From: Escherichia coli
GTDB lineage: Bacteria; Pseudomonadota; Gammaproteobacteria; Enterobacterales; Enterobacteriaceae
Length of the DNA: 64,000 nucleotides
NCBI RefSeq assembly: GCF_022846255.1
Contig: NZ_AP025682.1
Strand: one strand, 5' to 3'
The position numbers were made by a program, and so were the translations under genes. Of this stretch, positions 185 to 51,125 are shown piece by piece (the stretch's first letter is position 1; each line of letters begins with the position of its first letter). The notes under the pieces were generated by a model. The model ran no database searches and was not told the origin of the DNA. It saw only the letters and a list, made by a program, of their open reading frames with translations.

Positions 185-1738
185 TTATTTGATATCCTTC
201 ACGCGCATACCGTTGAGCTGTTCATCCGTAATGGTGTTGCCCGCTTTGAAGTAATCAACCACCGCGTGATAAACGTAATAACCGCCCGTTGTGTTACGCG
301 CTTTCCCTTCGGTAAAGGCGGTAAAACCATCTCCACCATCAGCAAGGAAACTCTGAGTAGCAATGTGATAAACCGTCGCATCTTCAATGGGTTTGCCATT
401 CAGAGTCAGTGTGATTACCCGCTGACCAACCGGCTTGCTGCTGTCGTACTTCATTTCCAGGCCTTTCGATACCTGTAAAACGCCATTGCTTAAACTTGCG
501 CCGTGTTCCATCAGACTGCGTAATTGTTTACCCGTGAGTTCCATCGTCACCAGTTCGTTGGGGAACGGGAACGTACTGATAACGCCGCCCATCGTGATCG
601 CCCCTGCGGGGATCTCATTGCGGATACCACCAGAGTTTGTTAACGCCAGTTGGGTATTTTTACCCGCTGCTGCCAGTAAAGCGTCAGCCGCCAGGTTCCC
701 GAGGGAAGCCGATTCACCATAGGCACGTTTTAATTCAACCGGCGATTGCGCCACCGTTTGTTGCACCACTTCATCAAGCTTTTTATTCCAGCCGTCGATC
801 ACCTGTTTCGTTTGCGGATCGGGCTTCCACTCGTCAGCGTAAATGGTTTTAAGCTCGAAGTTTTTCACCGTAAAATTATGCGGCTTCTCTTTGTAGTCGA
901 GAACCAGTTTGCCCACATCAATCCCGCCGCTGTCAGTGGAGAGGATGAGCGTATTGCCGACTTTAATCGGTTCCGGCGTACCCACATGTGCATGTCCGGT
1001 GATCAAAATATCCAGCCCTTTCACCTGACTTGCCGTCTGAATATCTTTATCCAACGCGCGACGCACATCTGTGCCTCCCATACTGGACTGGCGGGCCGGA
1101 ACACCTTCATGGATCAGGGCGACGGTCAAATCAACCTTGCCTTTAAGTTCATCGATATAACGTTGTAGCCATTTAATTTCATCACGCGCCTCAATACCCA
1201 CTCGCGTGGCAGCAGATACTGTGTCATTAAAGGCAAATACACCGTGCAAACCTATAACGCCTATTTTCACACCGTCTTTTTCGATGATGGTATAGGGCTT
1301 ATCCCAGAATGATTTACTGCTGTTCTGATAAAAAACATTGCCCTGCACAATCGGGAATTTTGCCTGACTCAACTGTAATAATGTGTTGTCCCAGCCGTGG
1401 TCAAATTCATGGTTGCCTATCGTGACGGCATCAAACGGCATAGTATTCATAATATCGATAATAGCCTTACCTTTGGTCAGGCTGCTGATATATGGCCCGG
1501 TAAAATAGTCGCCCGCATCAAAAAACCATGTCGCTTTATTTTTTGCTTTTTCTTGCTTAACCAGCGTAGTGATATTTGCCCAGCCGCCAATATCCCGTTT
1601 ACCGTTCGCAATCCACGGCACTTTATAAGGCTCTACATGTGCATGGAGGTCGTTAGTATAAATAATGGTGACATCTTTGGCGCAAGCCCAGAACGGCAAT
1701 GTTAATGCGATACCCGCAGCAAGTATTTTAATTTTCAT
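185..1738 (-). CDS. secreted UshA-family metallophosphoesterase / 5'-nucleotidase, paralog 1 (ORF extends to TTG at 1744; first ATG at 1738)
   Basis: N-terminal signal peptide; calcineurin-like phosphoesterase motifs [35 protein letters not shown]; long C-terminal domain as in 5'-nucleotidases; SD-like AAGGGA upstream of ATG. Confidence 0.8.
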
Positions 1739-1797
1739 AAACAATCCCTTTCAGTGAGATAAAGGATTGCTACATTACGTTCTGAAAGACTTATTTA

Positions 1798-1813
1798 TGT
1801 GAGAGTAATCACA
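1798..1813. promoter_or_regulatory. candidate CRP binding site TGTGAgagtaaTCACA in divergent promoter region
   Basis: both half-sites match consensus TGTGA-N6-TCACA exactly; centred about 65 bp from each flanking start codon. Confidence 0.6.
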
Positions 1814-1870
1814 TCCGCAGGGGATAGTTGCCGGACAAAATCAACGACCTTGTGAAATCGTTGGTGATAT

Positions 1871-2995
1871 ATGTCGACTCTGTTTACGATTAATGCCTGT
1901 AAAACGTTCGGTTGCCGAAATTTGGGATTGGCCTCATCGGAAGATTACAGTTGGCCAGACTATAAACTGGGTTATCCGGCACTGCACTGTCGGGCATGTG
2001 GAAGTTACCCGCCGTTGTTTGACGAACAGCAATTTCGTGACTGGTTGTCAGTTCACTTATCTACTTTTGCAACTGAGAAAGGTCATTTCTGCCCGGTATG
2101 TTATGGCACAGACATGATTTGTTATGGTCACAATCCACAGGGTTCGCAACGCATTCAATGCCGTAACTGCAAAAAAGTCTGGACGCCTAAAAAATATCAG
2201 AAAGAAATTACGCATCCCCAGGCCATTGAAACCGTTCAACTGTTCATACCCTTTCAAGGGGCCAGTGCAGTACAAAAACTGTATGTTTTAGTCAGTCTTG
2301 ACGCCACTCGTGGCAACATTCTTCATCTCTCCACGAATTATACGCAACATCAGACAGGAGACAGTCTGCGGTACAGTTACAAGGGCAACACAGAACCAAC
2401 TATGCACCATCGCGATATCGTGCAGAAGGTAGATATGCGTGAAGCGCAATTCTTGCGCCGGAGCCAGTTCGATGAAATTCAGTATGGCAGTGCTGTACTC
2501 AAGCGCAACGGTAAGGGAGCCATACTACGCCCGGTTATCACGGCACACGGGCATTTCAGAATACTGAAAATCCGCTATCCAGATGTCAAAACGCATATTA
2601 TTTCACACGAATGTTTTCTAAGAGGCGCAATTATTACAGCCTGGGCAGATCAGTTCCGCCAACAACAAGGTGAACTTTGGTTCGTAGAAGAAGAAATCAG
2701 TGACAGTAACGCTGATACGCCCTGGCATTTTAAGGGAACGACATACCATGGTTGGTGGCAAAATCAGTGGCAGCGCTGGGAGCAGGGGAATAACTGCAAG
2801 ATGGTCTGCCTACTCACGGGAGCCTGCTTAGAAAGGGGCGCAAATGTTTCTCTGGCAACCAGTCGTTGTTTTATCACATGGCTGACAGACCAACACGACT
2901 TTACCCAAAGCGCGTTATTATCCGCAGGTCGCGTAACACAAATGCTGACCTCACTGGCGTTAAAATACAATGAATCGCTCACTCCATCTTGTTAG
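1871..2995 (+). CDS. zinc-ribbon protein of unknown function; second Cys cluster resembles IS1 InsA / transposase-type zinc ribbon; possibly transposase-derived
   Basis: 374-aa ORF; C-x4-C...C-x2-C and CPVC-x19-CRNC-x3-W motifs in first 100 aa; no terminal inverted repeats seen around it. Confidence 0.5.
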   Translation: MSTLFTINACKTFGCRNLGLASSEDYSWPDYKLGYPALHCRACGSYPPLFDEQQFRDWLSVHLSTFATEKGHFCPVCYGTDMICYGHNPQGSQRIQCRNCKKVWTPKKYQKEITHPQAIETVQLFIPFQGASAVQKLYVLVSLDATRGNILHLSTNYTQHQTGDSLRYSYKGNTEPTMHHRDIVQKVDMREAQFLRRSQFDEIQYGSAVLKRNGKGAILRPVITAHGHFRILKIRYPDVKTHIISHECFLRGAIITAWADQFRQQQGELWFVEEEISDSNADTPWHFKGTTYHGWWQNQWQRWEQGNNCKMVCLLTGACLERGANVSLATSRCFITWLTDQHDFTQSALLSAGRVTQMLTSLALKYNESLTPSC

Positions 2996-3114
2996 TCAAT
3001 ACACTCGACAAACGACCATAAATTAAGAGAGAGCACTACCTTTCATTTAATTAAATATATAAATGTATGACCGTGAAATATAATCATGGTCAATGTTTAA
3101 TTAATAACATTATT

Positions 3115-3130
3115 TGTTACTAAGATCACA
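3115..3130. promoter_or_regulatory. weak CRP-like site TGTTActaagaTCACA upstream of nucleotidase paralog 2
   Basis: one perfect half-site, one with a G-to-T change; about 100 bp upstream of start codon. Confidence 0.3.
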
Positions 3131-3162
3131 CAATACTTTTCTGAACTATGCTTACATAAAAT

Positions 3163-3179: not shown

Positions 3180-3224
3180 TTATTTAAATAATTCAACAAA
3201 TGTAACACACCCTATCCAGGAGGG

Positions 3225-4778
3225 ATGATGAAAACTGTATTTACAACATTATCAGTCATATTCGGCGTGATATTTTCTCACAGTGTTCTAGCTCAGGACG
3301 TTACTATTTATTATACGAATGACATTCACGCACATGTCAATCCGGCAAAAATCATCGCTGTTGATAAGAACAGACTTATAGGTGGTATGGCTAATATTGC
3401 AGGCATCGTTAATGAAGCGAAGAAAAAAAGCAAAGATGTGTTTTTCTTTGATGCAGGCGACTATTTTACCGGGCCGTATATCAGCACCCTGACCAAAGGT
3501 GAAGCTATTATTGATATCATGAACACTATGCCCTTTGATGCGGTGTCTGTTGGTAATCACGAGTTCGATCACGGTGTGCCCAATATGGTGTCTCAGTTAT
3601 CAAAAGCAAAATTTCCCATTCTGCTGGGAAATATCTACTACACCGATACGAATAAACCAGTTTGGGATCATCCGTGGACCATTATCGAAAAAGATGGTTT
3701 AAAGATTGGTGTGATTGGATTGCATGGCGCATTCGCTTTCTATGATACAGTCGCGGCAAAAGCACGTGAAGGCGTAGAAGCCAGAGACGAAATTAAATAT
3801 TTAAATAAAGCACTTGCAGAATTAAAAGGTAAAGTCGACATTACCGTTTTGCTAATTCACGAAGGTGTCCCGGCGCGTCAATCAAGCTTTGGTAGTAAAG
3901 ATGTGGAGCGGCTACTACAGGCAGATATTGAGACAGCTAAAAAAGTGAATGGTGTTGATGTCTTAATTACCGGTCACGCACATGTCGGAACACCGCAACC
4001 AATAAAAGTTAATAACACATTAATTGTATCTACCGATGCATACGGCACCAACATCGGAAAACTTGTGCTTGATTACAATCCGAAAACGAAGAAAATTGAT
4101 AGTTATAATGGTGAGTTAATCACCATCTTTGCAGATCAATTTAAACCTGACACCATCGTTCAAAATACTATTGATAAATGGAGTGCAAAGCTTAACAAAA
4201 TAACACAGGAAGTTGTCGGCCATTCTCCCGTAGTTTTAACACGTGAGTATGGTAGTTCCTCTTCTACCGGCAACCTTATTCTTGATGCAATGATGGAAAA
4301 AACACCTGATGCCGTTGCCGGATTTCAAAATAGCGGTGGGATGCGAGCTGATTTTCCTAAAGGCGATATCACACTGGGAGATGTTATTAGCACATTCCCC
4401 TTTAATAATGACCTCATCGAGATGGATTTGACGGGCCGCGATCTCAAATCATTGATGACGCATGCAACCAATCTAACTAACGGTGTGTTACAAGTTTCTA
4501 AAAGTGTTGCGGTTGTCTATGACAGCAAAAAACCACTCAACCAACGGTTAATCTCTTTCACCATTAACGGCAAACCCGTGGAAGATAATCAAACATATCG
4601 TATTGCCACGCACTCCTTTTGTGCCAGTGGTGGTGACGGTTTTGAAGCATTTTTGAATGGAAAAAATGTGAAAACGATACCGGGAACAACCTCGGCGGAA
4701 TCTATCATCGATTATTTCAAAAATCACAAGCCTATCACCCCAGACTTAACTAAACGAGTCATGGACGTCGCCAAATAA
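3225..4778 (+). CDS. secreted UshA-family metallophosphoesterase / 5'-nucleotidase, paralog 2 (start may be second ATG at 3228)
   Basis: signal peptide ending VLA-QDV; motifs [35 protein letters not shown]; AT-rich coding sequence. Confidence 0.8.
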   Translation: MMKTVFTTLSVIFGVIFSHSVLAQDVTIYYTNDIHAHVNPAKIIAVDKNRLIGGMANIAGIVNEAKKKSKDVFFFDAGDYFTGPYISTLTKGEAIIDIMNTMPFDAVSVGNHEFDHGVPNMVSQLSKAKFPILLGNIYYTDTNKPVWDHPWTIIEKDGLKIGVIGLHGAFAFYDTVAAKAREGVEARDEIKYLNKALAELKGKVDITVLLIHEGVPARQSSFGSKDVERLLQADIETAKKVNGVDVLITGHAHVGTPQPIKVNNTLIVSTDAYGTNIGKLVLDYNPKTKKIDSYNGELITIFADQFKPDTIVQNTIDKWSAKLNKITQEVVGHSPVVLTREYGSSSSTGNLILDAMMEKTPDAVAGFQNSGGMRADFPKGDITLGDVISTFPFNNDLIEMDLTGRDLKSLMTHATNLTNGVLQVSKSVAVVYDSKKPLNQRLISFTINGKPVEDNQTYRIATHSFCASGGDGFEAFLNGKNVKTIPGTTSAESIIDYFKNHKPITPDLTKRVMDVAK

Positions 4779-4818: not shown

Positions 4819-6438
4819 ATGAAAACAGCGCAGTGTACTTTACTTGCCGCAACATTGCTGACTATTTTTTCGACCTCAGTCATGGCGCAGGATGTCACGA
4901 TTATTTATACCAATGATCTTCACGCTCATGTGGATTCCTATAAAGTACCGTATGTCGCAGACGGAAAACGCGACATTGGTGGCTTTGCCAATATATCCAC
5001 GTTAGTAAAACAAGAGAAAGCCAAAAATAAAGCCACCTTTTATTTTGATGCTGGAGACTATTTCACCGGGCCATATATCAGTAGCCTGACAAAGGGCGAA
5101 GCAATAATTGATATTATGAATACCATGCCTTTTGACGCAGTATCAATCGGTAATCATGAGTTTGACCATGGCTGGGATAATGCCCTCCGACAATTAAGCA
5201 AAGCGAATTTCCCTGTTTTATTAGGCAATGTTTATCATAAAGAGAGTGAGAAACCCTTCTGGAACAAGCCCTACACCATCCTGGAAAAAGATGGCATCAA
5301 GATTGGTATTGTTGGGCTACACGGCGTATTTGCATTTAATGACACGGTCTCGGAGCTCTCTCTCCAGGGACTCGATAATGACAATAATAACCGATTTGAT
5401 AAATCTTCCGCGACCCTCAAGAATCAGGGGATTGAAGCACGTGATGAAGTGAAGTATTTGCAGCATTATATCGATGAGTTACGTGATAAGGTTGACCTCA
5501 CCGTGGCGCTGGTTCATGAAGGCGTACCGGCGCGTCAGTCCAGCATTGGCAATACAGATGTTAGACGTGCGCTGGATAAAGATATTCAAACCGCAAGCAA
5601 GGTGAAAGGATTGGATATTCTGATTACCGGGCATGCCCACGTCGGAACGCCAGAACCAATCAAAGTCGGCAACACCTTAATCCTTTCGACTGACAGTGGC
5701 GGTATCGATATTGGTAAATTAATCCTTGATGTCAACCCTACAGCTCGTACTCATAAAGTGAAGAGCTTTGAGCTGAAAACGGTTTATGCCGATGAATGGA
5801 TACCCGATCCAACCACACAAAAAGTTATCAATGGCTGGAATAAAAAACTGGCGGATCTTGTACGCCAACCAGTCGGTGAATCATCGATTGCATTAACTCG
5901 TGCCTACGGTGAGTCATCGCAACTTGGCAACCTGTTTACCGATGCAATGCTTGTCGCTGCACCGACTGCACAAATTGCGTTGATAAACTCCGGCAGTTTA
6001 CGTGCTGATATAAATGCAGGCACGATTACCTTTGGTGACATTACCAGTACATTCCCCTTCAAGAATGAACTTACTGAAATGGATCTCAGCGGTAAGGATC
6101 TGCGTAACCTACTGGAACACGGGGCATCGCTTACCAATGGCATCCTGCAAATGTCAAAAGGCGCAGAAATGCGCTATACCCTGCAGAAACCAGTAGGTCA
6201 GCGCATTGTATCTTTTAAAATTAATGGTGAAGAGATCGTTGATACGAATATTTACCATGTTGCGACTACGACTTTCCTTGCACTTGGGGGCGATGGTTTT
6301 CTGGCATTCAAAGAAGGGAAAAATGTCCAGGTCCGCGCCGGAAATAACATGTCCAATGTCGTAATCGATTATTTTAAGAAAGGCCACAAGATTACTCCTG
6401 CACAGGTAAATGAAATGCGGGTAGAAGTAAGCAAATAA
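4819..6438 (+). CDS. secreted UshA-family metallophosphoesterase / 5'-nucleotidase, paralog 3 (carries an 18-aa insertion relative to paralogs 1 and 2)
   Basis: signal peptide ending VMA-QDV; same five phosphoesterase motifs; SD AAGGAA upstream; starts 40 bp after paralog 2. Confidence 0.8.
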   Translation: MKTAQCTLLAATLLTIFSTSVMAQDVTIIYTNDLHAHVDSYKVPYVADGKRDIGGFANISTLVKQEKAKNKATFYFDAGDYFTGPYISSLTKGEAIIDIMNTMPFDAVSIGNHEFDHGWDNALRQLSKANFPVLLGNVYHKESEKPFWNKPYTILEKDGIKIGIVGLHGVFAFNDTVSELSLQGLDNDNNNRFDKSSATLKNQGIEARDEVKYLQHYIDELRDKVDLTVALVHEGVPARQSSIGNTDVRRALDKDIQTASKVKGLDILITGHAHVGTPEPIKVGNTLILSTDSGGIDIGKLILDVNPTARTHKVKSFELKTVYADEWIPDPTTQKVINGWNKKLADLVRQPVGESSIALTRAYGESSQLGNLFTDAMLVAAPTAQIALINSGSLRADINAGTITFGDITSTFPFKNELTEMDLSGKDLRNLLEHGASLTNGILQMSKGAEMRYTLQKPVGQRIVSFKINGEEIVDTNIYHVATTTFLALGGDGFLAFKEGKNVQVRAGNNMSNVVIDYFKKGHKITPAQVNEMRVEVSK

Positions 6439-6514: not shown

Positions 6515-7375
6515 ATGTATATAAAAAAGCACTGGATAGCTTTATCCATTCTATTAATACCTTGCATTGGAAACGCTCAGGAAATTAAAATTGATGAAAG
6601 CTCGTTACATCAAAGCTTGAATGTCATTGGTCGCACAGACTCTCGCTTTGGCCCAAGACTGACTAACGACCTCTACCCTGAATATACTGTAGCAGGAAGA
6701 AAAGACTGGTTTGATTTTTATGGTTATGTTGATCTACCGAAATTCTTTGGCGTCGGCAGTCACTATGATGTTGGGATCTGGGATGAAGGCTCACCACTAT
6801 TTACGGAAATAGAACCTCGGTTTTCCATTGACAAATTGACCGGATTAAATCTTGCGTTCGGCCCATTTAAAGAATGGTTCATTGCAAACAACTATGTCTA
6901 TGATATGGGTGACAACCAGTCATCCCGGCAAAGTACATGGTATATGGGGCTTGGTACAGATATCGACACGGGTCTACCAATTAAGCTTTCTGCCAATATA
7001 TACGCCAAGTATCAGTGGCAAAACTATGGTGCCGCTAATGAAAATGAATGGGACGGATATCGATTCAAAATAAAATATAGCATCCCTCTTACAAATTTAT
7101 TCGGAGGGCGATTGGTATACAATAGTTTTACTAACTTTGATTTTGGCTCCGATCTTGCGGACAAGTCACACAATAATAAACGAACCAGTAATGCTATTGC
7201 TTCAAGCCATATCCTTTCCCTTCTATATGAACACTGGAAATTTGCATTTACACTACGTTATTTTCACAACGGTGGACAATGGAATGCGGGAGAGAAGGTT
7301 AACTTCGGAGATGGTCCATTTGAATTAAAAAATACAGGATGGGGAACCTATACTACTATTGGTTATCAATTTTAA
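6515..7375 (+). CDS. Tsx-like nucleoside-specific outer-membrane channel (Tsx/OmpK family paralog)
   Basis: 286 aa, signal peptide, C-terminal Phe; blocks such as [37 protein letters not shown] and [26 protein letters not shown] recalled from Tsx. Confidence 0.7.
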
Positions 7376-20912: not shown

Positions 20913-22338
20913 TAATGCCAGTCAGTTAAGCAACTGACTGGCTCTTTTTCGGGGCTGTGGGGTATTTCCAGGGCCTCTCCTTTACCACTCTCGGGAAGGC
21001 CCTTTCCCTTCTTGTCGGTAATTTCACAAGTTGTCCCATACTTGCAAGATCGCGCATCAGCTCCGGTATACGTCCCGGTGAAGCGCCCTGCAATGTCATC
21101 AGCATTCTCATCACCATTCCACATGATTCTGAGAAACTCAGTTGATTCGGCCAGTAACCTTTCAGATGTTCCGCCATTTTAATCATCTGATATCTCACCA
21201 GATTATAAGCCAGTAAGACACCCCACAGCTCTTGCTCCACAAGCTCCGGTTTTTTACTTCTCAGCGTCAGCCTGCTCAGTTGCATCGTCTGTTTTATCTC
21301 CCTGTATCCCAGTTCGATTTCCCAGCGATGACTGTACAGATCCGCCATTTCTCCTCCGGGGAAGCGCATGGCGTCCGTCATCGACGTCAGCAGATGGCAG
21401 ACTTTTCCTTTGCGCGTCACGGTCAGCAGGCGGGCTGTCACTTCATTTCCCAGTCCCGGCCACTTTTTTCGTGCCTGCGGGCTGGTTTTCAGCTTCACCA
21501 GATGATCGCCTTTACCCAGTTTTCTGATCTCTTCATATTGCGCTCCCTTTCTGAGAGGTATCATCCAGTGGCGGTGTTCTCCCGCCAGGCTCCAGGCATT
21601 TAACAGTCCCAGTGAGTAATAACCTTTATCCATTAACGTCAGAGTGTTATCGCCGGTTTGTTCTATAAGTTGCTCAGCAAGCTCATTTTCGCTGTTCTTC
21701 ATCGTGCCGAAGGCTGCAGCCGTCAGCAGATGGCTGGTCAGTTCCATCTGGCAGACCATTTTGACCTGCGGGTAGAGCGCCGGGTTCCCGGCATGTGTCT
21801 GGCGGGGGAAGGCTGCATCGTTCTCTGGTGTATCCGGTGTGCGCCAGAACACACCATCGATGGCCAGCAGGGTCAGGCCGCACCAGTGCGGATGCGGCGT
21901 GGCGTTATGCCAGAGCTGCGCTGTTTTCGTGAACACGCGGCGGACAGCCTCACTTCCCAGGCGCTGGCGGGCCTGAATAACGGCACTGGGGGCAACGAAG
22001 GGGCGATTGCCCGGCAGCATGATGTCCAGGCGATTCACAATCTGGTGAAGAGGTTCTTTACGCTCAAGCGCCATGCCAACAATACACCAGACCATCATTT
22101 CGAGGGGAAGACGGCGCTTGCGTAGCGTTACAGTACCTGATTCGGCAAGGCAACGAGAGATGAGTTCGGGGTCGAGGTAATCCCCCAGAGAAGTCAGTGG
22201 GTTACGCAGAGAATCGTAACGGGATACCAGATCAAGAGCCTGTCCAATGTGCATAAAAAAATCCGGAAACAAGTGAGCGTTTCCGGATTCTTACACAGCC
22301 ACTGGATCGGTCAACTGATCCTTAACTGATCGGCATTA
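20913..22338 (-). mobile_element. insertion sequence IS4, 1426 bp, with about 18-bp imperfect terminal inverted repeats
   Basis: ends TAATGCCAGTCAGTTAAG and CTTAACTGATCGGCATTA; single 442-aa transposase ORF; flanked by 12-bp direct repeats. Confidence 0.9.
20926..22254 (-). CDS. insG: IS4 transposase
   Basis: 442 aa from [16 protein letters not shown]; ORF track extends 6 codons upstream. Confidence 0.9.
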
Positions 22339-22350
22339 CACCGCAAGGTG
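22339..22350. repeat. IS4 target-site duplication, right copy (caccgcaaggtg)
   Basis: direct repeat of 20901-20912. Confidence 0.85.
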
Positions 22351-46170: not shown

Positions 46171-46175
46171 ACACT

Positions 46176-46675
46176 GCCGGATGCGGCACAAGTGCCTTAT
46201 CCGGCCTACAGGTCAGCAACAGTTGTAGCCCTGATAAGACGCGACAGCGTCGCATCAGGCATTGATTGCCGGATGCGGCACGAGTGCCTTATCCGGCCTA
46301 CGGGTCGGCAATAGTTGTAGGCCTGATAAGACGCGACAGCGTCGCATCAGGCATTGATTGCCGGATGCGGCACGAGCGCCATATCCGGCCTACGGGTCGG
46401 CAATAGTTGTAGGCCTGATAAGACGCGACAGCGTCGCATCAGGCATTGATTGCCGGATGCGGCACGAGTGCCTTATCCGGCCTACGGGTCAGCAACAGTT
46501 GTAGGCCTGATAAGACGCGACAGCGTCGCATCAGGCATTGATTGCCGGATGCGGCACAAGTGCCTTATCCGGCCTACGGGTCGGCAATAGTTGTAGGCCT
46601 GATAAGACGCGACAGCGTCGCATCAGGCATTGATTGCCGGATGCGGCACGAGTGCCTTATCCGGCCTACGGGTCG
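46176..46675. repeat. tandem array of about 5.4 copies of a 92-bp BIME unit (two inverted REP elements per unit) between rhaA and rhaD
   Basis: unit starts at 46176, 46268, 46360, 46452, 46544 and 46636 with exact 92-bp period and a few point differences. Confidence 0.9.
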
Positions 46676-46712
46676 TGCATCCGACAACACCGAATTAACA
46701 GGAACACAGAAC

Positions 46713-50291: not shown

Positions 50292-51125
50292 TTAATTGCT
50301 CAAACGCTGCGGATGGGTATAAACCGTTGCCCGACCCGGTTTACAAAAGCCCACCAGCGTCAGATTACAGCGCTCAGCCACTTCTACAGCAAGTGTGGTC
50401 GCGGCAGACACCGCAAACAAAATCTCTACGCCGCACATCGCCGACTTTTGCACCATTTCATAACTGGCACGGCTGGAAACCAGCACCGCACCTTGCTGCC
50501 AGCTTTCCCCTTCTTGTGACCGGCGGCCTAACAGTTTGTCCAGCGCCACATGGCGACCCACGTCTTCATGCCCGCCGACCAGTTCGCCAGATGGCAACAT
50601 CCATGCAGCGGCGTGAGTACAACCAGTCAGTTGCCCCACTGGCTGGAAATCATTGAGATGACGTAATGCATCATCCAGTTTGTTGAGATCAAACATCTGG
50701 GTGAACGGCAGCGGCTGCACCGGTTTACCGATATCGTTAAGCTGTTCTACACCGCATACGCCACAGCCCGTACGTCCCGCCAGCGCCCGGCGGCGCTCCT
50801 TCAACCCCATAAAGCGGCGGCTGGAAAGCTCAATTTGTACTTCCAGGCCATTACAGGAAGGAACGACATCCATGCCGAAGATATCGCGCGGGCTTTCGAT
50901 AATTCCTTCGGAAAGCGAAAAACCGAGCGCAAAGTACTCAAGGTCTTTGGGCGACGCCATCATCACCACATGCGAAATACCGTTGTAGACCAGCGCAACG
51001 GGAACTTCTTCCGCCACCTCATCTAACCGTGGGTGTTGTAAATCATCACGCCGCCATAACTCAATTTGACGAACACCTGTGATATTTGTCACATTTTCGA
51101 TTTCTTTTTGCTGTGTTTTTTTCAC
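50292..51125 (-). CDS. fdhD: sulfurtransferase / formate dehydrogenase accessory protein FdhD
   Basis: 277 aa, [28 protein letters not shown]; divergent from fdoG. Confidence 0.95.

Follow-up and report, generated by a model that had tools for sequence, protein, structure and literature searches.

The nt1–znr locus between metF and metL

The window, that is, the whole 64-kb stretch of Escherichia coli DNA analyzed here, begins with 7.6 kb that match CFT073, Nissle 1917, LF82 and other B2-type E. coli at 99.3% identity. This stretch, which lies between metF and metL, carries the divergent genes nt1 and znr, followed by nt2, nt3 and a paralogue of tsx (Table 1). A descriptive genome paper from 2026 named this region GR31 and suggested a role in nucleoside processing, leaving regulation unmentioned (PMC12928451). 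It is the only paper on the region that we found, and the literature searched contained no description of control of nt1 or znr by CRP and no report of CRP binding, expression or transcription starts at the divergent pair.

Table 1. Features of the nt1–znr locus and the adjoining nt2 unit, in window coordinates.
Feature	Position	Strand	Remarks
nt1, periplasmic metallophosphatase/5'-nucleotidase (UshA/YfkN-like, signal peptide)	185-1738	-	left target of the divergent promoter region
Candidate nt1 -10 hexamer, TAATGT	1772-1777	-	first base 28.5 bp from CRP centre; putative
Conserved block, TTACGTTCTGAAAG	1775-1788		between CRP site 1 and nt1 start; overlaps candidate -10
CRP site 1, core TGTGAGAGTAATCACA	1798-1813 (22-bp site 1795-1816), centre 1805.5		perfect core
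Candidate znr -10 hexamer, CAAAAT	1836-1841	+	first base 30.5 bp from CRP centre; putative
Invariant block, AAATCGTTGGT	1855-1865	+	directly upstream of znr start
znr, 374-aa zinc-ribbon protein	1871-2995	+	right target of the divergent promoter region
Terminator-like hairpin, TGACCGTG...CATGGTCA	3068-3092	+	73 nt after znr stop codon
CRP site 2, core TGTTACTAAGATCACA	3115-3130 (22-bp site 3112-3133), centre 3122.5		9/10 core positions
nt2	3228-4778	+	add-on unit downstream of site 2
nt3	4819-6438	+	add-on unit downstream of site 2
tsx paralogue	6515-7375	+	Tsx subfamily model 487.9 bits, cut-off 311

About a third of sequenced E. coli carry the locus, including CFT073, Nissle 1917, LF82, ST131 and E2348/69: the nt1–znr intergenic region is present in 1841 of 5426 complete genomes. 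The five-gene form with nt2-nt3-tsx accounts for 658 of these carriers, and the rest have a short form consisting of nt1 and znr alone. At about 4266-4302 of two short-form loci (L004 and L005), znr and the convergent metL overlap at their 3' ends by about 37 bp.

The locus also occurs in Klebsiella, Citrobacter and Enterobacter. For comparison, we recovered 30 loci encoding relatives of znr from species-representative genomes of Citrobacter, Klebsiella, Enterobacter, Kluyvera, Pluralibacter, Silvania, Superficieibacter, Pseudocitrobacter, Escherichia species including E. albertii, and Salmonella enterica subsp. arizonae. The divergent nt1/znr pair is kept in nearly all 30, and between genera the nt1 proteins are 88-99% identical in amino acids. 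The pair is flanked by metF and metL in Citrobacter, Klebsiella, Kluyvera, Pseudocitrobacter and S. arizonae as well, and this shared metF-nt1-znr-metL synteny indicates that it is ancestral and was lost from K-12-type E. coli. A first-pass annotation of the window had described a nutrient-scavenging island wired into catabolite control. The catabolite-control part of that proposal is consistent with the sequence comparisons below, but the notion of a newly wired island does not hold for nt1 and znr, which belong to an ancestral metF-metL segment; the add-on is nt2-nt3-tsx only. The attribution of a nutrient-scavenging function to the locus rests on annotation and gene context.

A predicted CRP site with two exact half-sites

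Read directly from the window, site 1 matches TGTGA-N6-TCACA at all ten core positions with the 6-bp spacer, confirming the perfect core that had been proposed from the sequence at first pass. Its distance to each divergent start codon, put there at about 65 bp, measures 67.5 bp to the nt1 ATG (1738, minus strand; the start annotated in CFT073) and 65.5 bp to the znr ATG (1871).

Such a sequence is rare. Perfect cores occur twice in the 64-kb window against 0.09 expected, a count that none of 100 shuffled windows reached, and when up to one core mismatch is allowed there are six matches against 1.89 expected. These consensus-core counts are independent of the weight matrix, a symmetric, 22-bp matrix that we built from 19 classic CRP sites and that is approximate. 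A scan of the whole window with this matrix, the check suggested at first pass, places site 1 sixth among 63,979 positions (13.46 bits) and site 2 second. Six positions score at least 13.46 bits, compared with 0.78 expected per 64 kb in Markov simulations, and for the two AT-rich intergenic regions, together 364 bp long, their own base composition leads one to expect about 0.015 such matches. The 19 classic sites behind the matrix themselves span 4.7-21.7 bits with a median of about 14, a range that includes both sites.

The other high-scoring positions allow these values to be calibrated. With gene context assigned by mapping the window onto the CFT073 annotation, the remaining top matches lie between rhaBAD and rhaSR (15.7 and 13.0 bits), upstream of kdgT (15.2 bits), between fdoG and fdhD (15.1 bits), upstream of cytR (14.5 bits) and between rhaT and sodA (13.3 bits), with glpFK at 9.8 bits. 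All of these are known, newly found or predicted CRP targets (Shimada et al. 2011, PMC3105977), and every match above about 13 bits in the K-12 backbone of the window lies in a recorded CRP-target locus. The second perfect core of the window, TGTGATATTTGTCACA (51078-51093; 15.1 bits), sits within the first codons of fdhD, some 220 bp upstream of the divergent fdoG; the fdoG/fdhD pair is a CRP target predicted by SELEX (PMC3105977).

Conservation of site 1 across genera

A CRP-like site is found at the homologous place in 30/30 loci, from more than ten genera, scoring 11.5-17.8 bits. In an alignment of 20 intergenic regions, the half-sites have a mean column identity of 0.96, compared with 0.61 for the spacer and 0.81 for the remaining columns. 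Parsimony on a tree of the nt1 coding sequences gives the same picture, with 0.4 changes per column in the half-sites, 3.5 in the spacer and 2.5 in other columns; in total, four changes fall on the ten half-site columns and 21 on the six spacer columns. Among E. coli variants down to 91% identity, changes are confined to the spacer and the flanks. The left half-site is degenerate in some genera, reading TGCGA in Enterobacter, TGTGC in Pluralibacter and CGTGC in Silvania. A G at position 6 of the 16-mer is invariant, for which known CRP preferences give no reason.

The spacing is rigid. The block TTACGTTCTGAAAG, whose columns show 0-2 changes each, is always 23 bp away from the 16-mer, and the block AAATCGTTGGT always follows it by 42 bp; both distances (-23 and +42) are constant in all loci in which both genes are intact. 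Between TCACA and CAAAAT, 21 bp vary freely in sequence at a fixed length. Two loci with damaged genes also keep the site. In S. arizonae (L036), the 5' half of znr and the znr promoter are deleted, and nt1, its promoter and the CRP site are intact. In Kluyvera genomosp. 3 (L033), both nt1 and znr are frameshifted, and the site there has the lowest score of all, 11.5 bits.

Could the CRP-like sequence be non-functional or transcriptionally inert, and conserved merely as part of a constrained promoter or 5'-UTR? The whole nt1–znr intergenic region is indeed well conserved, with a mean column identity of 78%, and other windows with a conserved/variable/conserved pattern are present, so that the contrast at site 1, which ranks second of 116 windows, is not unique; strong CRP-like cores also occur inside genes, as in fdhD. 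Yet matches of this strength are hardly expected by chance in the two intergenic regions, and the combination of half-site/spacer contrast, rigid spacing and recurrence in barely alignable paralogues (below) is hard to obtain without selection on the motif itself. We consider an inert sequence very improbable indeed. The comparative evidence strongly supports the central idea of the first-pass annotation, namely a functional CRP site that would bring the nucleotidase locus under catabolite control.

Putative promoter geometry on both sides of the site

A consensus scan of 1739-1870 detected no -35/-10 promoter pair. The lack of a sigma-70 -35 box between nt1 and znr fits the expectation for activator dependence. 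At a class II promoter with the activator site at -41.5, the -10 hexamer is expected 29.5 bp from the site centre, and candidate hexamers lie near this distance on both sides (Table 1). In the intergenic alignment, five positions of the nt1 candidate (T1, A2, A3, G5 and T6 of TAAnGT) are invariant, as are A2 and T6 of the znr candidate. Taken singly, the E. coli hexamers are weak (3-4 of 6 matches) and were picked with the CRP site in mind. A TATAT-like -10 element nearer the nt1 start was rejected, since it would leave too short a leader and place CRP near -55.

The same layout recurs in distant paralogous or orthologous pairs whose intergenic sequences are barely alignable to the E. coli nt1–znr region. 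A paralogous pair in Citrobacter (L035), whose znr homologue is about 41% identical, has an intergenic region of 134 bp with a CRP-like centre 66.5 and 68.5 bp from the two starts. The corresponding values are 130 bp with 64.5 and 66.5 bp for L040, and 127 bp with 62.5 and 65.5 bp for L043, whose protein belongs to a cluster from Vibrio taketomensis. Equivalents of the -10 hexamer are found in all three at 28.5-29.5 bp on the nt1 side and again at 28.5-29.5 bp on the znr side (CAATAT, CAATAT and TAGAAT, respectively). With E. coli included, a -10-like hexamer (defined as A2, T6 and at least three of six matches) thus lies 28.5-30.5 bp from the centre on 8/8 promoter sides in four lineages, against a chance of 0.20 per side; the naive probability of 2.7e-6 for all eight sides overstates their independence, because the four lineages are homologous. 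This spacing on both sides would put the site at about -40.5 to -42.5 relative to both putative transcription starts. The recurrent two-sided -10 spacing, together with the lack of a -35 element, leads us to propose class II activation of both promoters by one CRP dimer.

CRP-like sites are often found within the shared regulatory region of distant loci of the znr family, and the site remains TGTGA-N6-TCAC(A/G) in family members that are only 20-43% identical to znr. These loci bear on another arrangement, in which CRP binds site 1 but activates one promoter only, most likely that of nt1, with znr being driven independently or even repressed by that very CRP dimer. Such an arrangement would suit S. 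arizonae, where the site is kept with nt1 alone, and the locus L047, where a catabolic operon has a CRP-like site 69.5 bp upstream and the znr homologue is about 200 bp away from that site; the znr candidate CAAAAT, at 30.5 bp, is also one bp past the optimum. Other loci show the reverse: in L041/L042 and in the Salmonella locus L046, a strong CRP-like site pairs with the znr homologue, 70.5 and 79.5 bp upstream of it, while the start of the neighbouring gene is 360-900 bp off. The symmetric placement at 62-68 bp with -10-like hexamers on both sides, recurring in four lineages, also argues against a one-sided function. Activation of a single promoter is in our view unlikely, though it deserves to be kept in mind, and we regard it as probable that site 1 is a genuine cAMP-CRP site serving two back-to-back, activator-dependent promoters, those of nt1 and znr.

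No other element between nt1 and znr is conserved as well as AAATCGTTGGT, directly before the znr start, whose 11 columns show no change in 30 sequences. It holds a GGTGA Shine-Dalgarno-like sequence as well as the right arm of an inverted repeat, CAACGA (1842-1847)/TCGTTG (1858-1863), and distant members of the znr family likewise have a GTTGG motif just ahead of the start codon. The block could be a ribosome-binding region or an autoregulatory operator. Reading the repeat as an RNA element found no favour with the data: there is no Rfam match, the region folds like shuffled sequences (z = -0.16), and natural variants of the left arm break the pairing as often as they keep it.

A second site upstream of nt2

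Site 2 is centred 105.5 bp upstream of the nt2 ATG (3228). The first-pass annotation called it the weaker site, which is correct by core mismatches, of which it has one, but not by the matrix, which takes the flanks into account and gives it 15.49 bits (rank 2 of 63,979) against 13.46 for site 1. In divergent E. coli islands its half-sites are kept and the scores rise to 16.4-18.0 bits, with one spacer and one flank base differing. The region upstream of nt2 is AT-rich and contains many -10-like hexamers, which leaves several possible places for the promoter belonging to site 2.

Downstream of znr lies a terminator-like hairpin, whose stem is kept in divergent E. coli through one compensatory change from C-G to T-A. 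The position of this hairpin after znr and its conserved stem suggest that znr and nt2 are transcribed separately. Enterobacter and some Citrobacter have nt2 and tsx on the nt1 strand, downstream of nt1, and no strong CRP site occurs within this series of genes. Judging from these arrangements, every transcription unit appears to have exactly one strong predicted CRP input.

Two further motifs were considered in this region. A 'TTCTGAA' motif shared by nt1 and nt2, or a homologous promoter, was dropped: relative to the CRP site, the motif is displaced by 3-4 bp between the two genes, and divergent nt2 regions do not preserve it. At 3190-3206, two direct matches to the CytR octamer at 7 of 8 positions, AATTCAAC and AATGTAAC, lie one base apart. 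Both are conserved in divergent E. coli islands; the octamer test has low power, finding no match in the 211-bp region upstream of cytR that served as control.

The znr protein

Structure prediction points to znr as a protein with two Cys4 zinc ribbons and an RNase H-fold domain resembling those of DDE transposases and integrases. The AlphaFold model, based on a deep alignment, has a pLDDT of 91.9 and a pTM of 0.92, and it supersedes an earlier model from 24 close sequences (pLDDT 61) for which fold searches were uninformative. In the model, znr appears to combine an RNase H-like core with an N-terminal zinc ribbon, a combination found in DDE transposases. When the catalytic triad is assigned from the secondary structure of the model, rather than by residue-level superposition, only E247 (after beta4) is acidic in 34/34 sequences, accounting for one of the three canonical positions; none of the 34 sequences offers a conserved acidic residue on beta1 or the C-terminal helices. 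Sequence-based searches gave little: Pfam returned a weak InsA-type ribbon and no family for the C-terminal domain, PADLOC had no match, PHROGs had weak zinc-ribbon matches only, and searches of PDB sequences gave spurious zinc-finger matches only.

In its genomic behaviour znr differs from IS1 InsA/InsAB' and from DDE transposases: it occupies one place per genome in the 1841 carriers, keeps its synteny with nt1, metL and metF across genera, has an extra N-terminal ribbon, and is not flanked by terminal inverted repeats, none of which were found. The family extends beyond the Enterobacteriaceae and comprises 176 clusters at 50% identity. In the distant loci examined (L041/L042, L043, L044, L046, L047 and L048), the neighbours of znr homologues include a 5'-nucleotidase; a NupC-type transporter with a nucleoside phosphorylase; a deoB-like gene with a phosphorylase and a NupG-like symporter; a porin with a class B acid phosphatase and a cyclic-nucleotide phosphodiesterase; and Tsx with a sulfatase and the radical-SAM maturase of the sulfatase. 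The predicted fold, the incomplete triad, the synteny and these neighbours together suggest that znr is a domesticated transposase-like protein linked to nucleoside scavenging. Such a neighbour pattern is typical of a dedicated local regulator or accessory factor. We tentatively suggest, as a possibility that we would not yet favour, that znr founds a hitherto undescribed protein family, derived from DDE transposases by domestication (tandem zinc ribbons, inactivated integrase-like core), whose members act in Enterobacteriaceae and Vibrionaceae as local regulators or sensors for operons that scavenge nucleosides and nucleotides. The znr protein might bind AAATCGTTGGT or the CAACGA..TCGTTG repeat at its own promoter.

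The palindrome at site 1 could alternatively be the operator of another protein, for example of znr or of a LacI-type repressor, and its likeness to a CRP site coincidental. InsA-type zinc ribbons are a DNA-binding module in IS1 and transposases bind inverted repeats; znr is paired divergently with its neighbour in the manner of a local regulator; TGTGAG..CTCACA resembles the half-sites of the lac operator; and CRP gives no reason for the invariant G at position 6 of the 16-mer. Against this, all ten CRP core positions match, and by its score site 1 is on a par with the sites in recorded CRP-target loci. One would expect a private operator to drift along with its protein, but the motif is retained in family members with as little as 20-43% identity to znr, and it persists where znr is truncated (S. 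arizonae) or frameshifted (Kluyvera). As for a lac-type operator, the spacer of site 1 is 2 bp longer than that of the symmetric lac operator. We consider an operator for another protein very improbable and retain CRP as the likely ligand of site 1.

Discussion

The arrangement that we propose is compact. One CRP dimer centred at 1805.5 would face two divergent transcription starts, that of nt1 near 1765 and that of znr near 1848, each about 41 (±1.5) bp downstream of the site centre, and would take the place of the missing -35 elements in both directions, in class II geometry. At high cAMP, when the carbon supply is poor, CRP would activate nt1 and znr together, and site 2 would provide the add-on unit nt2-nt3-tsx, which is specific to E. 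coli, with a separate CRP input. CRP binding at the site, the direction of its effect, both transcription starts and the class II mechanism are what we infer from the sequences compared here. The predicted site makes the locus a new, well-supported and deeply conserved candidate for the CRP regulon, in which CRP probably acts in class II fashion at two promoters.

How does this compare with known systems? Each side of the nt1–znr region resembles class II promoters such as galP1 and melAB, having a single CRP site, no recognisable -35 element and a weak -10 candidate at 28.5-30.5 bp. Unlike promoters of the galP1/melAB type, in which CRP sits at -41.5 of one promoter, a single site at about -41 would here serve two opposite promoters. 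Natural precedents for sharing exist: 11 divergent pairs with one CRP site have been listed (Shimada et al. 2011, PMC3105977), and the model system of El-Robh & Busby 2002, as cited there, has one CRP site activating in both directions. Like rhaT-sodA, araBAD-araC, xylAB-xylFGHR and glpEGR-glpD, nt1 and znr have one CRP site between divergent units, but the 132 bp between them are unusually short and symmetric, and this symmetry is conserved from Escherichia to Vibrio. The region would be a natural case, compact and symmetric, in which two class II promoters apparently share one CRP dimer.

The first-pass annotation drew an analogy to the CRP-activated genes of nucleoside uptake and catabolism, tsx, cdd, udp and deo among them. 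The functional theme stands: like the K-12 CytR/CRP regulon (tsx-p2, cdd, udp, nupC, nupG, deoP2), the locus concerns uptake and breakdown of nucleosides and nucleotides and includes a tsx paralogue, and tsx, cdd, udp, nupC, nupG and cpdB are listed CRP targets (PMC3105977). The tandem CRP/CytR architecture, however, is absent at site 1. The nt1–znr region has one site only at 11 bits or more, with no tandem CRP sites, and contains no TGCAA/TTGCA and no match to the GTTGCATT octamer at 7 of 8 or better; we rejected CytR co-regulation at site 1 for want of a CytR motif or a second CRP site. Two further differences concern the proteins. The nt1-type enzymes are periplasmic, UshA/YfkN-like nucleotidases, not cytoplasmic catabolic enzymes, and the candidate local partner is transposase-derived, not a LacI-family repressor.

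CRP regulon maps rest on E. coli K-12, which has no nt1/znr locus, and this is why the pair is missing from curated regulon lists. The conserved CRP input leads to the prediction that cells make the nucleotidases and the additional Tsx when carbon is limiting, for example in urine or the gut lumen. The site also draws attention to the znr family, which accompanies genes of nucleoside scavenging across families and may represent a new type of regulator. Should the tentative role of znr prove true, the locus would be a two-input switch, combining carbon status via CRP with a local signal via an exapted transposase.

Other features of the window

Two further differences or irregularities were noted outside the locus. 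A 1.4-kb insertion relative to CFT073 (20912-22339) adjoins rraA and encodes a 448-aa transposase at 20926-22272, which we take to be IS4-type with an InsG-like sequence. At 46175-46679, in the gap between rhaD and rhaA, BLAST alignments staggered by about 92 bp indicate a tandem repeat array, whose copy number may differ from that in CFT073.
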